The position numbers and the translations under genes are program-made. Shown one piece after another: positions 1-49,904 of a stretch of 64,000 nucleotides of DNA. Location of the stretch: the NCBI RefSeq assembly GCF_055900595.2, contig NZ_CM148325.1, one strand, 5' to 3'. The notes under the pieces were generated by a model. The model searched no databases. It was not told the DNA's origin and saw nothing but the letters and a program-made list of their open reading frames with translations. Each line of letters opens with the position of its first letter. Position 1 is the first letter of the stretch.

Positions 1-579
1 CGCGCGGTGCTTGGGCGCGTCTGGTTATACGGCATGGCGCTGGCGTTGGCTTCTGCCGGATTTGGCGTTATCGCCACCTTTATCACATTGTTTTATGACG
101 CTAAAGGCTGGGACGGTGCGGCTTTTGCGCTGACGCTGTTTAGCTGTGCATTTGTTGGAACGCGATTGTTATTCCCTAACGGCATAAATCGTATCGGCGG
201 CTTAAATGTGGCGATGATTTGCTTTAGCGTTGAGATAATCGGCCTGCTACTGGTTGGCGTGGCGACTATGCCGTGGATGGCGAAAATCGGCGTCTTACTC
301 GCGGGGGCGGGGTTTTCGCTGGTGTTCCCGGCATTGGGCGTAGTGGCGGTAAAAGCAGTGCCGCAGCAGAATCAGGGGGCGGCGCTGGCAACTTACACCG
401 TATTTATGGATTTATCGCTTGGCGTGACCGGACCACTGGCTGGGCTGGTGATGAGTTGGGCGGGCGTCCCGGTGATTTATCTGGCGGCGGCGGGACTGGT
501 CGCAATCGCGTTATTACTGACGTGGCGATTAAAAAAACGGCCTCCGGTGGAAGTACCTGAGGCCATCTCATCATCTTAA
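1..579 (+). CDS. yhhS: MFS transporter YhhS, C-terminal part (5' end lies outside the window)
   Basis: ORF in frame from base 1; hydrophobic multi-helix translation; position next to dcrB as in E. coli. Confidence 0.85.
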   Translation, partial: RAVLGRVWLYGMALALASAGFGVIATFITLFYDAKGWDGAAFALTLFSCAFVGTRLLFPNGINRIGGLNVAMICFSVEIIGLLLVGVATMPWMAKIGVLLAGAGFSLVFPALGVVAVKAVPQQNQGAALATYTVFMDLSLGVTGPLAGLVMSWAGVPVIYLAAAGLVAIALLLTWRLKKRPPVEVPEAISSS

Positions 580-582
580 AAC

Positions 583-1140
583 TTACTGAATAACCAGCGT
601 ATTAATGATGTTTTCTGCGGTGGTCTGTGCTTTTTGCTGATCGTCAGCTGGCAGCGTAATTTGCATGGTCAGCAGTTGATTACCCACGTTACCCAGAATA
701 ACGGAAGAGTACGCCGTCTGGCCTTTCGCGGAGATAATGCTGTCTAACTGCTGCATTTTGTGACCTTTCAGCTCAATGGCTTTATTGGTTACCACTTGCA
801 GCTGCGGATCGCGGCTACGTTGCTGATCTTCCAGGCGCTTCGCCAGCACCGCCAGATCTTCTTTCGGATCATCGCCCATGATGACGATGACTGCTTTTTG
901 CCCGGTGGCGTCGGACCAGACATGCATGTTATTAGCCTGCGTTCCCAGCTTACCGCTCTGGTCGGTCATATCCGCTGGCAGCGAGAAACTTAACTTGCCA
1001 TCAAGCAGGTTGACGGGATTCCCGGTAGCGTTACTTTCCGCGACCGAACCCTGCGCCGTAGCGTTAGTGTCTTTATCATCACAGGCCGTAAGCCCCATAA
1101 CCAGCAGGCCAATTCCGACATATTTAACCAGATTGCGCAT
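583..1140 (-). CDS. dcrB: Periplasmic lipoprotein DcrB
   Basis: Translation [22 protein letters not shown] (lipobox LTAC); ORF track start at 1194 is an upstream in-frame extension, start chosen at the internal Met. Confidence 0.88.
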
Positions 1141-1212
1141 TGACTTCTTCCTTTCGATAAACGGCCATAACGGCTCATTCATCCATCTTATCACAACTCT
1201 GATAACGAACCT

Positions 1213-1878
1213 TTAACTCGCCTGCAAAGCGTTGATTTCGGATTTATCTGCCAGTCTTTTCAACAGCATATTGAGTAATACGCCATACATTGGCAGGAAG
1301 AAAACGATACTGATTAACACTTTGAAACAGTAATCGACCAGCGCGATTTCCATCCAGTGTTCAGCCATAAAGGCATCTGGGCTGCGCCAGAAGGCAATGA
1401 AGAAGAAGGCCAGCGTGTCGCTGACGTTACCAAACAGGGTGGAAGCCGTCGGTGCCAGCCACCAGCGACGACTCTGACGCAGGCGGTTAAAAACGTGCAC
1501 GTCGAGGATTTGCCCCAGCGCGTAGGCCATGAAACTGGCGGTGGCGATACGGGCGACAAACAGGTTGAAGTGGGCGAGCGCGCCGAATCCCTGCCAGGAA
1601 CCCATATAGAACAGCGACGAGATGACGTAGGAGATCAGTAACGCCGGGATCATCACCGCAAAGATGATACGACGGGCCAGCGGTGCGCCAAAAATACGCA
1701 CAGTCAGGTCGGTAGCAAGGAAAATAAACGGAAAGCTAAACGCGCCCCAGGTGGTATGGAAACCAAAAATGGATACGGGAAGCTGAACCAGATAGTTACT
1801 GGAGGTGATCACCAACAGATGAAATAACGATAACCAGAACAACGCCTTATAGCGTTGAGTTTGCGAGAAAACGTTCAT
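1213..1878 (-). CDS. yhhQ: Queuosine precursor transporter YhhQ
   Basis: 221-aa polytopic membrane protein, recognised sequence and synteny. Confidence 0.9.
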   Translation of the reverse strand: MNVFSQTQRYKALFWLSLFHLLVITSSNYLVQLPVSIFGFHTTWGAFSFPFIFLATDLTVRIFGAPLARRIIFAVMIPALLISYVISSLFYMGSWQGFGALAHFNLFVARIATASFMAYALGQILDVHVFNRLRQSRRWWLAPTASTLFGNVSDTLAFFFIAFWRSPDAFMAEHWMEIALVDYCFKVLISIVFFLPMYGVLLNMLLKRLADKSEINALQAS

Positions 1879-2098
1879 ATTGTACCTTTTTGATTAACCA
1901 TTGGGGTGAGGGAACCCAATACGTACGACACGTCTGTTACCTTAACATAATAACGTGCTGACCCTTTTTTCGAGCCGCCGCATGATACTGCTTTACGTTG
2001 ACAATGCAATGGTTAATTTTCACGCAATCGTTAACCTGGTTTGCTTACGGACTCACAGGGCGTAAACTAGCGCCGTTTTTTTATGTGATGAGAAGAAA

Positions 2099-2344
2099 AT
2101 GACCGATCTCTTTTCCAGCCCTGACCACACACTCGACGCACTTGGCCTGCGCTGCCCGGAACCAGTAATGATGGTGCGCAAAACTGTGCGCAATATGCAG
2201 CCAGGTGAAACGTTGCTGATTATTGCTGACGATCCGGCGACGACACGCGATATTCCTGGGTTTTGTACCTTTATGGAACACGAACTGGTTGCGAAAGAGA
2301 CCGATGGACTGCCTTATCGTTATTTGATTCGCAAATCGGGGTAA
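2099..2344 (+). CDS. tusA: Sulfur carrier protein TusA
   Basis: 81 aa; conserved CPxP motif (LGLRCPEPV). Confidence 0.95.
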
Positions 2345-2397
2345 GGTGGATCAGGCTAGCGGACCGATCGCGCTCAATTTTGCGGCTTGCAACCGGT

Positions 2398-2534
2398 TTG
2401 TAGGACGGATAAAACGTTCAAGCTGCATCTGGCGATACGGTGCGCAAGGCCTGATGCGACGCTGTCGCGTCTTATCATGCCTACGAGTTCGATGCCCTGT
2501 GTAGGCCAGGTAAGGCGTTTACGCCGCATCCGGC
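2398..2534. repeat. Cluster of REP (repetitive extragenic palindromic) elements, BIME-like
   Basis: Three imperfect palindromic units of the gcc(g/t)gatgcg...tgtaggcc type between tusA and the next ORF. Confidence 0.75.
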
Positions 2535-2558
2535 ACGCAAACGTAATGGAATGCACAA

Positions 2559-2867
2559 ATGGATTATTTAATTCCAGTTTGTCTGGCATTGCTGGGATTG
2601 CTCGCGATCTTCACCCCCAATTGGCTGATCCCTGTTTTTATCGTCGTGGGGGGATGGCTGGGGGTACTTGCCTGGGGTTGGCTCTGGCTAATGATTTTTT
2701 TACCTTTACTTAACGGTGTCGGGCTTGCTTATGCCCTGTGGTTGATGTTCAAAAGGCCATCCATAGCATCCCGCCTGGTTGCTGCATGCTGTGTTATCTC
2801 CGTCATTCTGATGTTAGCGCTTTATTATGCTTTCCTGACTATGCCGCCGTTCCCGGCCCAGCACTAA
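2559..2867 (+). CDS. Hypothetical small hydrophobic membrane protein (102 aa)
   Basis: ORF with 3-4 predicted TM stretches (W/L/G-rich), sits in an otherwise intergenic gap, followed immediately by a perfect 11-bp stem hairpin; weak SD; not recognised as a named gene. Confidence 0.4.
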   Translation: MDYLIPVCLALLGLLAIFTPNWLIPVFIVVGGWLGVLAWGWLWLMIFLPLLNGVGLAYALWLMFKRPSIASRLVAACCVISVILMLALYYAFLTMPPFPAQH

Positions 2868-2892
2868 GCCTGATAGCCAGAGGCTATCAGGC
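2868..2892. terminator. Hairpin terminator between the convergent 102-aa ORF and zntA
   Basis: GCCTGATAGCC-aga-GGCTATCAGGC perfect 11-bp stem, followed by AACACTTTTACTT. Confidence 0.6.
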
Positions 2893-2899
2893 AACACTT

Positions 2900-5098
2900 T
2901 TACTTCCTGCGCAACAATCTTAACGCATTCGCCGTCACCAGCACCGTCGCACCCGTATCTGCCAGCACCGCCAGCCAAAGGCCAGTCATTCCTAACAGCG
3001 TTGTGACGAGGAAGATCCCTTTCAGCCCCAGCGCAATGGTGATGTTCTGGCGGATATTGGCGTGAGTGGCGCGTGCCAGTTCAATCATCTGCGCCAGGCC
3101 GCGCAGGTGGTTATGGGTTAATGCTGCGTCGGCGGTTTCCAGCGCCACGTCTGTGCCACTGCCCATTGCAATCCCTATGGCGGCAGCTTTCATGGCGGGC
3201 GCGTCGTTAATACCGTCGCCGACCATCGCCAGCGGCGCATGTTGATTCAGCTCGGTCACCGCTTTGACTTTATCTTCCGGCAACAGGCCCGCTTTAAACT
3301 CCAGCCCCAACTCCCCGGCAATTGCCGCCGCTGCGCGTGGATTATCGCCAGTGAGGATCACCCCTTTGACACCCAGGGCGCTCAGTTCGCTGATGGCAGT
3401 TGCGGCGTCGGCGCGCAGGGTATCCTGCAATGCAATTACGCCAAGCACGTCATCGTTACGCACCACCAGTACTACCGTTTGCCCGGCGCTTTCCAGTTCG
3501 TTAATTAAACCAGCAAATGCAACAGCCGGATGTTTTCCGGCAGCGCATATCAACACGCGCTCGCCGTTAATCAGTGCTTCAATACCAGACCCGACCAGCG
3601 CCCGCTGTGATTCGGCGGCGGGAATGGCGAGTTCAGCAACCTGTGCTTCGCGTACGATGGCTTGCGCCAATGGATGCGTCGCGCCTTGCTCGACCGCCGC
3701 TGCCAGTGTCAGCAGTTCAGATTCACTAATACCCGTTGCCGGATGAATCGCGGTAACGCGCGGTTTACCGACGGTCAGCGTACCGGTTTTATCAAACGCC
3801 ACCTGGGTAACACGACCTAGTTGTTCCAGCGCCGCACCGCCTTTAATCAACGCCCCACGACGCGCTGCTGCTGCCAGCCCGGAGGTGATCGCCGCAGGTG
3901 TTGAGATCACCAGCGCACACGGGCAGCCAATCAGCAGCAGCGTCAGCCCTTTATAAATCCACTCCTGCCAGCTTGCGGCAAACAGCAGCGGCGGCACCAG
4001 CGTCACCAGCAGGGCGACGGCCATAATCGCTGGCGTGTAAATACGGCTGAAACGGTCGATAAACCGCTCAATCGGTGCGCGGCGCTCTTCAGCTTCTTCG
4101 ATCAGTTTCAGAATCCGGTCAATGGCGCTGGCACCCGGTTCTGACAGCACTTCCAGCGTTACCAGACGGTCTACGCTGGTGGCGCCTGCAGGAACTTTAT
4201 CACCCGTCGCGCGTTCCACCGGAATGGATTCGCCGGTCAGGGCGCTTTCATCAAAACTGGCAAACGGTGAGAGCAGTTTACCGTCGGCAGGTAAACGCCC
4301 ACCCGCTGCGACTTCAATCACATCGCCCGGACGCAGGCTGTTAATTGCTACCTCTTCACGCTTGCCATTACGCAGGCGCGTGGCGGTTTCCGGTTTCAGC
4401 GCCATTAACGCGCTGACCCCTTGACGCGCGCGGCTGGCGGCCCAGCCTTCCAGTCGTTCACCAATCAAAAATAGCAGCAACACCATCGCAGCTTCGGCGG
4501 TTGCGCCAATAAACAGCGCGCCAATGGCGGCTACGCTCATTAACGTTTCAATGGCGAAGTAGCTGCCCGATTTGATCAGCCGTAATGCCTGGCGCACAAT
4601 CGGGTACAGCCCAACCAGCGTGGTCGCGATAAACGCCAGTTGCCCGAACGGATGATTAAACTGCTCCAGACCCCAGCTGATTGCCATCAACACGATTAGC
4701 GTAATCAGCGGCAGATTCTCTTTCAGGCGTGATTCTTGTTGTTCGTCGGCGGACTGTTCATCGCGCAGGGAATAGCCCGCTTTTTGCACCGCAGATTCAA
4801 CTTGTGCACGGATGTCATTGTCGGCATCAACCACCAGTTTTTCGGTGGCGAACAGCACCTGCACCTGATTCACGCCTGCAAGCTGGCGCACGGCATTTTC
4901 TACCTTGCGCGCGCAGGCGGCGCAGTCCATGCCGCTGACTTTCCAGCTATAGCGGGTGCCGGAGACGTTTTCAGAGAGCGTTGGCGTGCTGGAACATGCG
5001 CCGTCGCAGCAACAGTCGTTGGCGTTCTGTGCCGTGGTTAGCGGTTTGAACGCAGCAAAGTGAGGGGCTTTCTTGCCGTTATTGTCAGGAGTCGACAT
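2900..5098 (-). CDS. zntA: Zn(II)/Cd(II)/Pb(II)-translocating P-type ATPase
   Basis: 732 aa; N-terminal GMDCAAC metal-binding motif, CPC in membrane domain, DKTGT phosphorylation motif. Confidence 0.96.
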   Translation of the reverse strand: MSTPDNNGKKAPHFAAFKPLTTAQNANDCCCDGACSSTPTLSENVSGTRYSWKVSGMDCAACARKVENAVRQLAGVNQVQVLFATEKLVVDADNDIRAQVESAVQKAGYSLRDEQSADEQQESRLKENLPLITLIVLMAISWGLEQFNHPFGQLAFIATTLVGLYPIVRQALRLIKSGSYFAIETLMSVAAIGALFIGATAEAAMVLLLFLIGERLEGWAASRARQGVSALMALKPETATRLRNGKREEVAINSLRPGDVIEVAAGGRLPADGKLLSPFASFDESALTGESIPVERATGDKVPAGATSVDRLVTLEVLSEPGASAIDRILKLIEEAEERRAPIERFIDRFSRIYTPAIMAVALLVTLVPPLLFAASWQEWIYKGLTLLLIGCPCALVISTPAAITSGLAAAARRGALIKGGAALEQLGRVTQVAFDKTGTLTVGKPRVTAIHPATGISESELLTLAAAVEQGATHPLAQAIVREAQVAELAIPAAESQRALVGSGIEALINGERVLICAAGKHPAVAFAGLINELESAGQTVVLVVRNDDVLGVIALQDTLRADAATAISELSALGVKGVILTGDNPRAAAAIAGELGLEFKAGLLPEDKVKAVTELNQHAPLAMVGDGINDAPAMKAAAIGIAMGSGTDVALETADAALTHNHLRGLAQMIELARATHANIRQNITIALGLKGIFLVTTLLGMTGLWLAVLADTGATVLVTANALRLLRRK

Positions 5099-42432: not shown

Positions 42433-44898
<2,466 letters not shown>

Positions 44899-44914
44899 GT
44901 TCACTAAAAAATAG

Positions 44915-44944
44915 AACGGGGCCAAATCGGTCCCGTTTTTTTTT
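44915..44944 (+). terminator. glgP intrinsic terminator
   Basis: CGGGGCC-aaat-GGTCCCG hairpin followed by T9. Confidence 0.85.
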
Positions 44945-44992
44945 GCCTTTATTTCGGAGAAGTGTCCAGAGGGGCAAGGGGACTCGGGGGAG

Positions 44993-44998
44993 TATAAT
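44993..44998 (+). promoter_or_regulatory. Candidate -10 hexamer (TATAAT) for the accessory operon; no good -35
   Basis: Exact TATAAT 18 bp upstream of the first ATG of the 505-aa ORF. Confidence 0.3.
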
Positions 44999-45015
44999 TT
45001 CGCCATTCAGAAAGA

Positions 45016-46533
45016 ATGGAAAGAATAATGCAAAACAGAAAATGGATTTTGACCTCGCTGATAATGACTTTTTTCGGCATCCCCATACTGACGCAATTTT
45101 TGGCAGCGGTTATTGCCATGCTGGGGGCCGGGCTTGCCGCTATTCTTGAGGTTTGCAATTTTCTCTTTACGCCAACAATTTATCTTCTACTCAACGTCTT
45201 TATGCTGACGCTGGGGGCGATAATTCTATTTTTCTCTGGTCGCGTGTGGGCCGGTGATAGCGCACCAGAAAACAGAGAAATAGCCGTCTGGCGGCAATGC
45301 TTTTTTCTTTTACCTGCACTGTTAACTCTGGTTGGCTGGATAATCACGCTACATCTGGCAGATTATCAATTTCGCCAAATGGGAGCAGGTTGGTTGGCAG
45401 AGCTTATGCTCCCCTGGCTGGGAGTTTTGTTAGTCTCATTAGTCGGAGGTGAGTTCTGGTGGATAGTCATTATACCCGTTGGTGCGCATATTAGTTTTTC
45501 GCTGGGGTATGGCTGGCCGACCAGATATCCTTTAACCGGCACGTACGGGTTACGTTGCCGTAATTCCCTCCTGTTTATCCTTCTTATGCTTGGTTTTATC
45601 GCTGGTTATCAGGCTTATTTATATAAACAGCTTAATCCCGGCGTCGGTGTGCGTGAAAATATTGATACCTGGGCCTGGCGACCCGATAAACTCAATAATC
45701 AACTGACGCCACTGCGTGGTAAACCGCAAATTCAGTTTACACAAAACTGGCTGCGACTCGATGGTGCTACGGCGGCGTACCCAATTTATGCTTCTGCCTT
45801 TTATGCGTTGAGCGTTATACCGGAAGATTTCCACACCTGGGAATATCTGGAGAACTCTCGTACCCCCGATGCATATAACAGGATTGTTAAAGGTGATGCC
45901 GATATTATTTTTGTGGCGCAACCTTCCGGTGGGCAGAAAAAACGCGCAGAGGAATCGGGCGTCACTTTGAACTACACTCCTTTCGCCCGTGAAGCATTCG
46001 TTTTCATCGTCAATGCGGATAACCCGGTTAATTCCCTGACTGACCAACAGGTGCGTGACATCTTCAGTGGCGCAATTACCAACTGGCGTACTGTTGGCGG
46101 TAACGATCAGGAGATCCAGACCTGGCAACGCCCGGAAGACTCTGGCAGCCAGACAGTGATGCAATCGCAGGTCATGAAAAATGTCCGCATGATCTCGCCG
46201 CAGGAAACCGAAGTGGCAAGCATGATGGAGGGAATGATTAAAGTTGTTGCCGAATACCGTAATACAAACAACTCAATAGGCTACACCTTCCGCTATTACG
46301 CAACACAAATGAACGCTGACAAGAATATCAAATTAGTAGCGATTAACGGTATTGCACCGACTGCGGAAAATATTCGTAACGGCAAATATCCGTATATCGT
46401 CGATGCCTTTATGGTAACGCGGGAAAATACTACGTCAGAAACACAAAAACTGGTCGAATGGTTTTTAACGCCGCAGGGGCAGAGTCTGGTGGAAGATGTG
46501 GGTTATGTACCGTTGCATACAACAATGAAATAA
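45016..46533 (+). CDS. Hypothetical fusion protein: N-terminal polytopic membrane domain (about 215 aa) plus C-terminal substrate-binding-like domain (PstS-like)
   Basis: 505-aa ORF (alternative start at Met5, 45028, with better SD); 6 or more hydrophobic helices; C-terminal domain about 60% identical to the next ORF (IIFVAQPSGGQKKRAEE..., WQRPEDSGSQTVM). Confidence 0.8.
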   Translation: MERIMQNRKWILTSLIMTFFGIPILTQFLAAVIAMLGAGLAAILEVCNFLFTPTIYLLLNVFMLTLGAIILFFSGRVWAGDSAPENREIAVWRQCFFLLPALLTLVGWIITLHLADYQFRQMGAGWLAELMLPWLGVLLVSLVGGEFWWIVIIPVGAHISFSLGYGWPTRYPLTGTYGLRCRNSLLFILLMLGFIAGYQAYLYKQLNPGVGVRENIDTWAWRPDKLNNQLTPLRGKPQIQFTQNWLRLDGATAAYPIYASAFYALSVIPEDFHTWEYLENSRTPDAYNRIVKGDADIIFVAQPSGGQKKRAEESGVTLNYTPFAREAFVFIVNADNPVNSLTDQQVRDIFSGAITNWRTVGGNDQEIQTWQRPEDSGSQTVMQSQVMKNVRMISPQETEVASMMEGMIKVVAEYRNTNNSIGYTFRYYATQMNADKNIKLVAINGIAPTAENIRNGKYPYIVDAFMVTRENTTSETQKLVEWFLTPQGQSLVEDVGYVPLHTTMK

Positions 46534-46558
46534 CTTTTGAGAGAACGGAATCAGCGCG

Positions 46559-47551
46559 ATGAATAAATTCATAGGCGTTTTACTGCTAGGTGCGGTTTTA
46601 CTGGCGGGATGTGTCGACCGGGAAGGGTACTATAACAGCGTCAGGGAAGAAGAGAGTCATGGACTGACGTCTCTGCGGGGGCAACCTGAATTACGTTACA
46701 ACGATGATTGGTCAAGATGGCCGAGAGTGTACGGCGCTACAGCCTTATACCCGCTGTATGCCTCCGCGTATTATGAATTAGTACCCGAGCCAAAAGATAA
46801 GGATCGAACCTCGCTGGCCTGGCAGGCGTATGGTTTGCAACAAACCCGAACAGCTGAAGCCTACGATAGTCTGATCAAGGGTACCGCGACGGTTATTTTT
46901 GTTGCACAACCGTCGGAAGGACAGAAAAAACGTGCAGAAGAAGCAGGCGTTAAACTGAAATATACCGCGTTTGCCCGCGAAGCCTTTGTCTTTATCGTTG
47001 ATATCAAAAACCCGGTTAATTCACTTAGCGAACAGCAGGTCAAAGACATTTTTAGCGGTAAAGTGAGTCGCTGGAATAAAGTGGGCGGCGGTGACGAAAG
47101 TATAAAAGTCTGGCAGCGGCCAGAAGATTCTGGAAGCCAAACGGTTATGAAGGGACTGGTTATGCAAGATACTCCAATGCTGCCAGCCAAAAAATCCACT
47201 GTTATCGATCTTATGGGCGGTTTAATTACCGAAGTCGCCGACTACAAAAATACACCATCTTCTATTGGATACACTTTCCACTATTACGTCACACGTATGA
47301 ATGACAATATGCTCAAAATGCGCAAACAGATCAAACTGCTGGCTATAAATGGCGTTGCACCTACAGAGGAAAATATCCGTAACGGCACTTATCCGTACAT
47401 GATTGATGCTTATATGGTGACGCACGAAACCCCTACGCTGGAAACGCAGAAATTCGTCGACTGGTTTTTAAGCCCGCAGGGACAGCAATTGGTAGAGGAT
47501 GTGGGGTATGTGCCGATTCATGACGCATCATACGAATCATCAGTGCAATAA
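46559..47551 (+). CDS. Hypothetical lipoprotein with substrate-binding-like domain (paralogue of the preceding C-terminal domain)
   Basis: 330 aa; signal peptide with lipobox LLAGC (Cys18); VIFVAQPSEGQKKRAEE and WQRPEDSGSQTVM motifs shared with the 505-aa ORF. Confidence 0.85.
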   Translation: MNKFIGVLLLGAVLLAGCVDREGYYNSVREEESHGLTSLRGQPELRYNDDWSRWPRVYGATALYPLYASAYYELVPEPKDKDRTSLAWQAYGLQQTRTAEAYDSLIKGTATVIFVAQPSEGQKKRAEEAGVKLKYTAFAREAFVFIVDIKNPVNSLSEQQVKDIFSGKVSRWNKVGGGDESIKVWQRPEDSGSQTVMKGLVMQDTPMLPAKKSTVIDLMGGLITEVADYKNTPSSIGYTFHYYVTRMNDNMLKMRKQIKLLAINGVAPTEENIRNGTYPYMIDAYMVTHETPTLETQKFVDWFLSPQGQQLVEDVGYVPIHDASYESSVQ

Positions 47552-48153
47552 TGATGAATAAAATCAGACTTTATATTCCTCCGTTAATTCTTGGTTTTGT
47601 TATTGTGCCGTTGTTGGTGTGGCCGACGGTGGTTGCGCTGGCTGCTTCTGTTATCACGCTGAGTTTTCTGGGAGAGATACTGTTCTCTATCCCGCTCATG
47701 ATCAGGCGTATTTCACTTCTGCAATTACAACTATGGTTATCGGCTGAATATGCGCTTTTCTGCTGTGCAATGGTGGGCGTTGGTTGGCAATTTGCTCGTA
47801 TAACTCAATCTGAATTGAAAAGCAGACTGCATTGTTGGCTGGTATTTGCACCAGTTTATTTCTGGTTGCTCCTGTGGAATATCATTTTCTATGTCGCGCC
47901 AGCGAATATTGCGTTGCTGGAGAATATGCGCAGTTTCTTTCTGACAGTTGTCTGGCTCCCACTAAATTTTTCGCCATTTTGGTCTCAACCGTGGATTGAC
48001 TTTGTCGGTCCAATAAGCGCACAGCTTGGTTTTGCGTTGGGATATTATTGCCAGTGGCGTAGCAAAAATAGAAGCCAGATACGGAAGTGGAGTGAGTGGG
48101 GAACGTGCCTGAGTTTTGTTACGTTGGGTATGATGGCGTGGGCTTTGCGGTAA
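47551..48153 (+). CDS. Hypothetical polytopic membrane protein (200 aa)
   Basis: Start overlaps the preceding stop (TAATG); 5-6 hydrophobic helices; loosely resembles the N-terminal domain of the 505-aa ORF. Confidence 0.7.
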   Translation: MMNKIRLYIPPLILGFVIVPLLVWPTVVALAASVITLSFLGEILFSIPLMIRRISLLQLQLWLSAEYALFCCAMVGVGWQFARITQSELKSRLHCWLVFAPVYFWLLLWNIIFYVAPANIALLENMRSFFLTVVWLPLNFSPFWSQPWIDFVGPISAQLGFALGYYCQWRSKNRSQIRKWSEWGTCLSFVTLGMMAWALR

Positions 48154-48202
48154 TTCCCTGACTCAAAAAGTAGGTCAGATTGTTGACAAAGTGCGCTTTG
48201 TT

Positions 48203-48301
48203 CATGCCGGATGCGACATGAACGTCTTATTGGCCTACAAGACCATGCAAATTCAATATATTGCATAAGCCACGTAGGCCTGATAAGCGTAGCGCATCAG
48301 G
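48203..48301. repeat. Pair of REP elements (BIME) followed by a T-tract
   Basis: tgccggatgcgacatgaacgtcttattggcctaca and cgtaggcctgataagcgtagcgcatcaggca then GTTTTTTG. Confidence 0.85.
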
Positions 48302-48323
48302 CAGTTTTTTGTTTATCATCAGT

Positions 48324-48347
48324 CTCAGGTCAGATTGAAATCTGACC
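48324..48347. other. Near-perfect 24-bp palindrome downstream of glpD, no U-tract on either strand
   Basis: CAGGTCAGATT-ga-AATCTGACCTG. Confidence 0.5.
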
Positions 48348-48365
48348 TGGCCACCTTACGTTAAT

Positions 48366-49871
48366 TTACGACGCCAGCGACAACCTCTGCTGCGTATATT
48401 CCCCTAGCCACTGACTCACACGGGATTGTTGCTGCGCATTCAGCCACATGCCTTGTTTTGTGCGACGCCACAGGGCATCGTCGGCGCGGCGGACCCATTC
48501 GTGGTCGACCAGATATTTCAGCTCCGCTTCGTAGAACTCATGACCGAAATCCTCCCCGAGGTCGCTTACCGCCCCCGCGTTGCCGAGCAGCAGCTCGCTA
48601 TTGCTGCCGTAAGTGCGTGCGTAATGACGTGCCAGCGATTCAGTCAGGAACGGGTAACGGCGGCGCAGGCGGGCGGCATAATCGTCGCGATCGCCTTCAA
48701 TGGCACCACCCGGCAGCACGCTCTCTTTCGTCCACGCCGGGCCAATGCCCTGATAATACGGCGTCAGTTTTTCCAGCGCGTGCTCCGCCAGTTTGCGGTA
48801 GGTGGTCAGCTTACCGCCGAATACTGATAACAGCGGAGCTTTGCCGTTTTCATCATGGATATCAAGGGTGTAATCACGGGTAATGGCCTGCGGCGAATCG
48901 GACTCATCATCACACAGTGGACGCACGCCGGAGTAGGTCCAGACGATATCATCCCGGCTTAGCTGCTTTTTAAAGTGCGCGTTATACACTTTCAGCAGGT
49001 AATTGATTTCACTCTCTTCAATCTTCACCGCTTTCGGATCGCCTTTATACTCCACATCGGTGGTACCGATAATGGAAAACTCGTCCATCCACGGGATCAC
49101 GAACACAATACGCTTATCTTCGTTTTGCAGAATGTAGGCCTGCTTTTGGGTATGCACGCGCGGCACCACAATATGGCTGCCTTTGATCAGGCGAATGCCA
49201 TAAGGCGAAGGCAGATGCATCCCGTCGTCGAAGAACTGTTTCACCCACGGGCCGGTGGCATTCACCAGACCGCGTGCCTGCCAGCTGTATTTTTTACCGG
49301 TATCAATATCTTCTGCTTCTACAATCCACAGGCCGTTTTCGCGGCGAGCAGAAGTGGCGCGAGTCCGGGTAAGCACTTCACCGCCTTTACGCACCACCAT
49401 CTGGGCGTTGGCGAGTACCAGACGCGCATCGTCTACCCAACAGTCGGAATATTCGAATCCGCGCTTAATTTCCGGTTTTAACACTGAATTTGCGCCAAAA
49501 CGCAAACCGGTAGATCCCGGCAGGCTGGTACGCTTACCCAGATGATCGTACATAAACAGACCAATACGGATCATCCACGCCGGACGCAGATGCGGGCGAT
49601 GCGGCAGGCGAAAACGCATCGGGAAAGCGATATGGGGAGCCATTTTCAGCAACACTTCACGTTCAGCCAGCGCCTCGCTGACCAGGCGGAATTCATAGTG
49701 CTCAAGGTAGCGAAGGCCACCATGAATGAGTTTTGAACTGGCGGAAGAGGTCGCACAAGCGAGATCCTGCGCCTCCAGCATCAGCACGGATAAACCGCGT
49801 CCAGCGGCGTCTGCCGCGATACCAGCACCATTGATGCCGCCACCTATCACAATCAGATCTTTGGTTTCCAT
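48366..49871 (-). CDS. glpD: Aerobic glycerol-3-phosphate dehydrogenase
   Basis: Start at internal Met METKDLIVIGGGINGAGIA (FAD-binding). Confidence 0.96.
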   Translation of the reverse strand: METKDLIVIGGGINGAGIAADAAGRGLSVLMLEAQDLACATSSASSKLIHGGLRYLEHYEFRLVSEALAEREVLLKMAPHIAFPMRFRLPHRPHLRPAWMIRIGLFMYDHLGKRTSLPGSTGLRFGANSVLKPEIKRGFEYSDCWVDDARLVLANAQMVVRKGGEVLTRTRATSARRENGLWIVEAEDIDTGKKYSWQARGLVNATGPWVKQFFDDGMHLPSPYGIRLIKGSHIVVPRVHTQKQAYILQNEDKRIVFVIPWMDEFSIIGTTDVEYKGDPKAVKIEESEINYLLKVYNAHFKKQLSRDDIVWTYSGVRPLCDDESDSPQAITRDYTLDIHDENGKAPLLSVFGGKLTTYRKLAEHALEKLTPYYQGIGPAWTKESVLPGGAIEGDRDDYAARLRRRYPFLTESLARHYARTYGSNSELLLGNAGAVSDLGEDFGHEFYEAELKYLVDHEWVRRADDALWRRTKQGMWLNAQQQSRVSQWLGEYTQQRLSLAS

Positions 49872-49904
49872 GCTGCCCTCATTCACTTTCGTTAAAGCTC
49901 ATAA

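Follow-up and report, generated by a model that had tools for sequence, protein, structure and literature searches.

What does a binding protein of the phosphate-importer type do when it is joined to a membrane domain and no transporter genes lie beside it? The question is raised by three genes situated between glgP and glpD in a stretch of 64,000 nucleotides of contig NZ_CM148325.1 (RefSeq assembly GCF_055900595.2, a strain labelled Escherichia coli); this whole stretch is referred to here as the window. The three genes, which we call A, B and C, are intact open reading frames (ORFs) on the same strand, and the RefSeq names of the proteins A and B refer to the PstS family. They belong to a large, distinct branch of PstS-like proteins that is as yet uncharacterised, and of which the E. 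coli locus has the fused and the split forms side by side. The answer that we favour, if only weakly, is that the members of this widespread family are anion receptors of PstS type, integrated in the membrane, that would act without a dedicated ATP-binding cassette (ABC) transporter. The features of the locus are the following.

42451-44898, + strand: glgP, upstream flank of A-B-C
45016-46533, + strand: ORF A, 505 amino acids from the ATG at 45016 or 501 from the ATG at 45028; membrane domain fused to a PstS-like binding domain
45028-45636, + strand: membrane domain of A, residues 1-203, six long predicted helices
45682-46530, + strand: linker and PstS-type (PBP_like_2) Venus-flytrap domain of A
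46559-47551, + strand: ORF B, 330 amino acids, lipoprotein carrying a PstS-like domain
47551-48153, + strand: ORF C, 200 amino acids, polytopic membrane protein
48366-49886, - strand: glpD, downstream flank of A-B-C

The initial annotation of this DNA, made without database searches, had described three same-strand ORFs of 505, 330 and 200 amino acids, with a gap of 25 nt between A and B and the stop codon of B overlapping the start codon of C by one base (TAATG), and these coordinates were confirmed. The start of A is uncertain, the candidates being the ATG at 45016, the RefSeq start at 45025 (an ATA codon in the window sequence) and the ATG at 45028. The last of them gives the N-terminus MQNRKW, which fits the MKNxKW N-termini of the homologues, and is for this reason the more likely start. 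The initial annotation had also noticed no permease or ATPase gene; indeed, searches of A, B and C against Pfam and NCBIfam gave no match to an ABC permease or ATPase in the glgP-glpD interval, and no such gene is conserved at 75 related loci.

The binding domain and its pocket

A PstS-type fold had been proposed for parts of A and B, and it was recovered by profile, sequence and structure comparisons. The Pfam check suggested with that proposal gave matches to PBP_like_2 (PF12849) with E values near 1e-30 in both proteins, at residues 246-485 of A (E = 3.9e-30) and 94-306 of B (E = 1.6e-29). The two domains are 57% identical to each other (A 224-501 vs. B 30-321), and a profile of the binding-domain family matched the PstS of Clostridium perfringens (4q8r/4gd5) with an E value of 2e-28. 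At the sequence level, A and B also matched PstS structures of the PDB. When the full-length model of A was compared with the PDB by Foldseek, the top matches were all PstS-type, the first one being the phosphate-bound 4gd5 (TM-score of 0.79 on the target). The NCBIfam model of the PstS family, TIGR02136, scored 119.0 bits for A and 121.1 bits for B, both under its curated cutoff of 206.6. PHROGs returned a sole label, 'phosphate transporter subunit'.

In PBP-1, the PstS of C. perfringens, phosphate is bound by S11, T12, S13, S41, S59, R125, S129, G130 and T131 (PMC5381212). Classical PstS proteins have Ala and Leu/Phe at the PBP-1 positions 11 and 13, where backbone NH groups are used, and Asp at position 59 (PMC5381212). 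We mapped these ligands through an alignment of the family profile to 4q8r and an alignment of 68 members of the family, which come from Proteobacteria, Bacillota, Campylobacterota and Actinomycetota, a correspondence that is sequence-based and not coordinate-based:

PBP-1 S11, B A60: kept in 68 of 68 sequences
PBP-1 T12, B T61: 68 of 68
PBP-1 S13, B A62: 68 of 68
PBP-1 S41, B T98 (probable equivalence, register within one residue): 68 of 68
PBP-1 S59, B Q117: variable (A in 24, G in 23 and Q in 16 of the 68)
PBP-1 R125, B R187: 68 of 68
PBP-1 S129, B S191: 68 of 68
PBP-1 G130, B G192: 68 of 68
PBP-1 T131, B S193: 68 of 68

The regular expression that chose the 68 sequences required G59 and T61 and allowed only Ala or Ser at 60 and 62 (B numbering), so that the invariance of G59 and T61 is without independent weight and that of positions 60 and 62 shows only that Ala is used over Ser; the positions from T98 onward are free of constraint from the selection. 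The Ala-rich stretch had been taken at first as a hint of a ligand other than phosphate. This argument falls, since the invariant GAT-A has its counterpart in classical PstS proteins, which also carry Ala there, and the Thr, Arg and Ser-Gly-Ser ligands are kept in the 68 sequences. The position responsible for selectivity (Asp56 of E. coli PstS, Ser59 of PBP-1) is A, G or Q in the family and is not conserved, and there are further family-invariant residues, namely P118-S119, Q122, E141-A-F-V-F and Q194 after the SGS (B numbering). As far as the alignments indicate, the real departure from PstS would be the lost selectivity Asp/Ser together with these added invariant residues. A tetrahedral phosphate-like anion would be the most economical guess for the ligand, leaving specificity aside.

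Another explanation would be that A and B are tethered accessory phosphate-binding proteins feeding a distant, canonical PstCAB, with the membrane domain and the lipid as anchors and C as a relic. Their nearest relatives are all genuine PstS, most of the phosphate ligands are kept, the RefSeq label is that of the PstS family, and some ABC importers take several binding proteins. However, the TIGR02136 scores of 119-121 bits fall under the cutoff and the family does not conserve the Asp or Ser on which selectivity depends; with the further evidence that appears below on both sides, we consider this explanation unlikely.

B had also been called a lipoprotein without Asp at +2 (lipobox LLAGC), and this reading was upheld by eye from the translation. 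The N-terminus reads MNKFIGVLLLGAVLLAG-C18-VD, with a signal peptide at 1-17 and the lipobox MNKFIGVLLLGAVL-LAG-C18 followed by Val at +2 and Asp at +3, and it matches, again by eye, the lipobox pattern [LVI][ASTVI][GAS]C. Under the +2 rule, Val at this position predicts sorting to the outer membrane.

The membrane domain and the nature of C

By hydropathy, the N-terminal ~205 residues of A are polytopic and C has a like layout, as AlphaFold2 also indicates for both, which agrees with the first description of C as a polytopic membrane protein. What can be added to that description is that C is a free-standing homologue of the membrane domain of A, as profile comparison shows. The alignment by hhalign of the C family with a profile built from the N-terminal domains of 52 non-redundant A-like proteins had a probability of 98.4% (E = 4.9e-15) over 169 colinear columns, spanning residues 1-176 of C and 1-173 of A, although the compositional bias of membrane proteins could raise this score somewhat. 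In the joint alignment of C and the A membrane domains, an invariant Pro19 and a helix-5 motif, IPVGxQxxFxLGY(Y/G)W, were common to both. B and C are thus the two modules of A split over two genes, with their order reversed.

C gave no Pfam or NCBIfam match, and the membrane domain of A no Pfam match, ABC permeases included. A profile search with this domain over 1.84 billion representative proteins found only 189 matches, mostly fusions of ~470-540 amino acids and some stand-alone proteins of ~180-215 amino acids, and Foldseek with the A membrane-domain model against AFDB50 retrieved only PstS-annotated fusions of the same family. Because both searches return only family proteins, the membrane domain can be regarded as private to the family, and it is outside any described transporter or enzyme family.

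The AlphaFold2 model of the A membrane domain (alignment of 35 sequences; predicted local distance difference test, pLDDT, 92.7; predicted template modelling score, pTM, 0.88) has six long helices, the first one of 41 residues. That of full-length A (alignment of 50 sequences; pLDDT 92.9, pTM 0.84) suggests that the binding domain docks on the membrane domain in a defined way and is not a floppy tether. As to topology, the members found in Bacillota have a basic loop (TKKR) before the last helix, indicating that the N-terminus is inside and the binding domain outside. In the A-type proteins loop 5 is the most basic (mean of 2.9 Lys plus Arg), which indicates a cytoplasmic loop 5 and, again, a binding domain located outside. 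The signal peptide of B agrees with an extracytoplasmic binding domain.

The distribution of the family was surveyed by pattern scanning with one genome per species. Relatives of the binding-domain subfamily were found in at least 551 species-level genomes of several phyla, and the best 79 loci came from Enterobacterales, Budviciaceae, Betaproteobacteria, Campylobacterota, Actinomycetota and many Bacillota (Lysinibacillus, Sporosarcina, Ureibacillus, Paenibacillus and Clostridiales). Nearly every full-length member at these 79 loci has an N-terminal polytopic domain, of ~230-250 amino acids with 5-7 hydrophobic segments in Proteobacteria and of ~130-140 amino acids with three hydrophobic segments in Bacillota. 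The binding domain of E. coli B is 40-48% identical to those of Bacillota. A membrane domain that varies by phylum next to such a conserved binding domain has the look of an anchor plus a conserved receptor, as accessory proteins of a distant PstCAB would have. Nevertheless, a domain of three to six helices with an invariant Pro and motifs of its own exceeds the needs of an anchor, and C, which would then be a relic, is under purifying selection (see below).

A second pair of lipoprotein and membrane genes was found in the glgP/glpD interval of Pseudocitrobacter cyperus. A B-like lipoprotein gene (72% identity to B) is followed, with an overlap of 4 nt, by a gene whose product has the membrane domain and a degenerate binding domain with an internal deletion. 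This arrangement looks like an intermediate, and C probably descends from a fusion gene after loss of the binding domain. In a metagenomic contig, a stand-alone membrane gene is directly followed by a fusion paralogue. P. cyperus has in addition, between the family genes and glpD (L099:7231-7659), a gene for a secreted protein of 142 amino acids with 'RDxNGNxxGxxxxDSxG' repeats.

Variation of the locus and gene neighbourhoods

We surveyed the presence of the three genes in 5,426 complete E. coli genomes, at a coverage of at least 80%, and found several variants of the locus:

A: 3,347 of 5,426 genomes (62%)
B: 884 of 5,426 genomes (16%)
C or its diverged allele C': 3,828 of 5,426 genomes (71%)
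Variant A-B-C: the window and O157:H7
Variant A-255aa-C'
Variant A-236aa-255aa-C'
Variant fimbrial operon-236aa-255aa-C': SCU-122, and ATCC 25922 with the same match pattern
Variant K-12 remnant: yzgL

The glgP/glpD locus is a mosaic hotspot and A-B-C is no invariable unit. The three-gene operon of the initial annotation stands as three tightly packed genes in the window, whose co-transcription is plausible from their spacing; it does not stand as a fixed unit, B being replaced in most E. coli and C occurring without A or B. The replacements of B are Cys-rich cytoplasmic proteins of 236 and/or 255 amino acids (L004:4147-5627, L003:3235-4002). In SCU-122 (L005:1-2391) a fimbrial cluster replaces A after glgP, and the genes for the 236-aa, 255-aa and C' proteins are kept. 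The 236-aa protein is 56% identical to the product of a 234-aa gene that follows A in Klebsiella oxytoca (L007:7838-8958), where a 139-aa YbbD-like (PRK09781) protein comes next; since a relative follows A there too, A and the 236-aa gene make a recurrent pair in Enterobacteriaceae. A further locus compared for replacement genes after A was that of Salmonella (L010:7534-8657). Pfam and NCBIfam searches with the 236-aa and 255-aa cassette genes gave nothing informative beyond the YbbD-like PRK09781 relation of the Klebsiella 139-aa gene.

The A-B-C cluster of O157:H7 has ~91% nucleotide identity to that of the window. The ratios of non-synonymous to synonymous substitution rates (dN/dS) between both, calculated with per-gene offsets due to a 2-nt indel in a spacer, were:

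A, membrane part: dN/dS 0.19, dS 0.32
A, binding part: dN/dS 0.09, dS 0.34
B: dN/dS 0.11, dS 0.38
C: dN/dS 0.19, dS 0.17

For the flanking glgP and glpD, with a nucleotide identity of 94-95%, dS was 0.25-0.27 and dN/dS 0.007-0.016. The values of 0.09-0.19 indicate that A, B and C are constrained by purifying selection, far less tightly than glgP and glpD.

As stated in the initial annotation, K-12 keeps at this same site only yzgL, which is a deletion remnant of A and C. Its first part corresponds to the initial ~73 codons of A; after an overlap of 8 nt, the terminal ~60 nt of C follow in another frame. The comparison of L006:1501-2114 with the window (44900-45300 and 48090-48365) identifies it as the product of a deletion of ~2.85 kb, by which K-12 differs from the window and O157:H7, with the 8-nt overlap as microhomology. 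Its 5' piece is like the 07-4299 allele of A (97% identity) and its 3' piece like the C allele of the window and O157 (95%). O157 and 07-4299 are 98.5% identical in glgP and only 88.8% in A, indicating that A exists as deep allelic lineages. The window region was matched at 99% or more by only nine of the 5,426 complete genomes, the strain being an unusually divergent lineage labelled E. coli.

The loss of most of the cluster in K-12 and in many other strains could suggest that A, B and C are decaying remnants of duplicated genes, functionless and heading to the K-12 state, a view that would also accommodate the resemblance of C to the fusion gene minus its binding domain and the intermediate of Pseudocitrobacter. 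We regard it as extremely improbable. The reading frames are intact, contrary to the frameshifted fragments considered in the initial annotation, and dN/dS is 0.09-0.19 at a dS of 0.17-0.38. In addition, A is present in 3,347 and C in 3,828 genomes, and the orthologues in Klebsiella and Salmonella speak of long retention. The A orthologues of K. oxytoca and Salmonella (50-54% identity) sit at the same glgP/glpD site, without pst genes and with unrelated genes after them, for which reason A can be considered long established there in Enterobacteriaceae.

We found no functional study of yzgL, the locus tags, O-island 133 (OI-133) or a membrane-fused PstS in the literature beyond array data and one deletion screen. 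From the locus tags (ECs4269 is glpD) and the presence of the cluster in O157:H7 and its absence in K-12, we infer that OI-133 of enterohaemorrhagic E. coli is the A-B-C cluster. A TUV93-0 mutant lacking OI-133 secreted less through the type III system in a screen without follow-up (PMC3378721; cited in PMC10877973). yzgL appears at -2.0 in a table of the CpxR regulon (PMC2731931), and the glp-glg region is listed as a hotspot in a 2026 paper (PMC13185298).

Two elements were detected in the spacer between glgP and A:

44913-44939, + strand: intrinsic-terminator-like hairpin and T-run, 11-pair stem with 6 G-C pairs, then TTTTTGCCTT
44993-44998, + strand: perfect -10 TATAAT of a candidate promoter, no good -35, G-rich stretch before it

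The terminator-like hairpin after glgP implies that the cluster needs its own promoter; the promoter scan of this spacer gave nothing better than chance or shuffled sequence. Between A, B and C there were no terminator-like sites beyond chance expectation. Pho regulation was rejected, as CTGTCATAWAWCTGTCAY had no match with three or fewer mismatches in the 64-kb window. A riboswitch or leader RNA was also discarded, Rfam giving only a sub-threshold match to the small RNA ES036 (CssrF) downstream of C (48239-48281, 35.4 bits vs. a gathering score of 37.6). Palindromes resembling repetitive extragenic palindromic (REP) elements lie between C and glpD (48154-48365).

Outside E. coli, clustering of four genes on each side in 75 loci revealed no conserved neighbour, the largest cluster (nine loci) being lineage synteny, and pstCAB was not found beside family members in any of them. 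Both this and the lack of a Pho box in the window argue against A and B serving a distant PstCAB. In Bacillota the family genes sit among housekeeping genes. A metagenome-assembled genome of Helicobacteraceae (L055:1675-8598) has four tandem family genes (539, 348, 564 and 521 amino acids), a local paralogue expansion.

A different setting was found in Salmonella enterica GCA_049351835.1 (L012:1-10993) and in L102, where an array of Rhs, PAAR and VgrG fragments surrounds the genes of two B-like lipoproteins. The surrounding genes are Rhs core-end and PAAR fragments, an HExxH toxin followed by a lipoprotein gene, an Ntox34 fragment, and HEAT/Sel1-like and ankyrin genes; a related Salmonella island has PAAR and VgrG fragments. 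The array looks like an orphan effector/immunity island, and one of the B-like copies lies directly 3' of an Rhs-CT-like reading frame. It could be argued from here that A, B and C are immunity or decoy proteins, maintained in a variable hotspot against polymorphic toxins of the type VI secretion system or Rhs kind that act in the periplasm or the membrane. The mosaic structure of the glgP/glpD locus, the deep alleles of A (88.8% against 98.5% in glgP), the YbbD-like genes after A in other Enterobacteriaceae and tandem paralogue arrays such as that of Helicobacteraceae would be in line with this. On the other hand, an anion pocket invariant across phyla and a housekeeping context in Bacillota are rare for immunity proteins, no toxin gene adjoins the cluster in E. 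coli, and PADLOC gave no match to anti-phage defence. The Rhs-CT-like protein itself has only four homologues, short, stand-alone and in mixed contexts, one of them borne by an integrase/primase element and not followed by a family gene. A role in immunity seems to us quite improbable.

Possible mode of action and known systems

We return to the reading that we weakly favour, that of membrane-integrated PstS-like anion receptors without an ABC transporter of their own. The protein would bind phosphate, or an anion that resembles it or bears a phosphoryl group, on the outer side of the cytoplasmic membrane, and occupancy would be relayed to the membrane domain of the same protein or across it. 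The outcome would be either binding-protein-dependent, ATPase-independent uptake or signalling at the level of the membrane, not delivery to an adjacent transporter; the sensor or unconventional uptake module of the initial annotation is likewise no more than a possibility. In support of it, the fold and the nearest relatives are PstS, and the Thr, Thr, Arg and Ser-Gly-Ser that coordinate phosphate are retained in the pocket. Nearly all full-length members have a polytopic domain, the topology places the binding domain outside, the 75 loci have no conserved neighbour, and the pTM of full-length A suggests a defined docking. The membrane domain shows conservation of its own (invariant Pro19 and helix-5 motif, with the stand-alone C under selection), and there is a second lipoprotein and membrane gene pair with overlapping stop and start, in Pseudocitrobacter.

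Several points weigh against this reading. The pTM is an indirect readout of interdomain docking, and the positive-inside counts do not place the N-terminus in the six-helix model. B, having no Asp at +2, is predicted to reside in the outer membrane, which argues against its direct docking on an inner-membrane C. Some E. coli have a C-type gene and no B, B2 strains have one and no A, and elsewhere stand-alone genes for the membrane domain lack a neighbour that codes for a binding protein. The proteobacterial membrane-domain profile misses the Bacillota type and the domains differ in size (six vs. three helices); with such differences between phyla, it is unlikely that what is conserved is a specific transport fold. 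A monomeric transporter would need more than three helices and, as regards signalling, there is no cytoplasmic output domain.

A broader claim would be that the family is a new class of ATPase-free, binding-protein-dependent membrane module, extending from Enterobacteriaceae to Bacillota, in which a PstS-like domain is hard-wired to or paired with a private membrane domain; we see it as possible, though rather doubtful. In one form of it the phosphate-bearing ligand could be located at the membrane surface, as free phosphate or as a lipid head group (polyprenyl phosphate, phospholipid), which the membrane domain would transport, flip or sense. The probability left by the four mechanisms (receptors with their own membrane domain, accessory proteins of PstCAB, immunity proteins and relics) goes to something else.

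PstS-type proteins are textbook parts of ABC phosphate importers, and the present subfamily is merely labelled "PstS family" in databases. If it is true that the domain acts via its own membrane part, this would be an undescribed coupling of a binding protein to the membrane; if it feeds PstCAB instead, tethered accessory receptors of a new class would have come to light. In E. coli, nature has already set up an experiment, with the fused A and the split B and C side by side and with strains that lack each part.

Among known systems, the tripartite ATP-independent periplasmic (TRAP) and tripartite tricarboxylate (TTT) transporters are secondary transporters dependent on a binding protein. They share with the family the use of a binding protein without an ATPase, but the family belongs to another Pfam family, has no DctQ/DctM- or TctA/TctB-like proteins and has only three to six helices. 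In the OpuABC and GlnP types, binding proteins are fused to ABC permeases. Both these and the family tether covalently a binding domain to a polytopic membrane domain; in our case, however, the membrane domain has neither an ABC-permease match in Pfam nor structural relatives outside the family, and there is no ATPase gene. The closest likeness is to the PstS of PstSCAB (4Q8R/4GD5, i.e., C. perfringens PBP-1, 4EXL, 1TWY and 4N13), with the same type II Venus-flytrap fold (PF12849), the equivalents of T12, R125, S129, G130, T131 and probably S41, and Ala at 11 and 13 in common. The family differs from it by scoring below the TIGR02136 cutoff, by its polytopic membrane domain with neither adjoining pstCAB nor Pho box, and by having A, G or Q at the Asp56/Ser59 position together with the extra invariants PS..Q, EAFVF and the Q after SGS.

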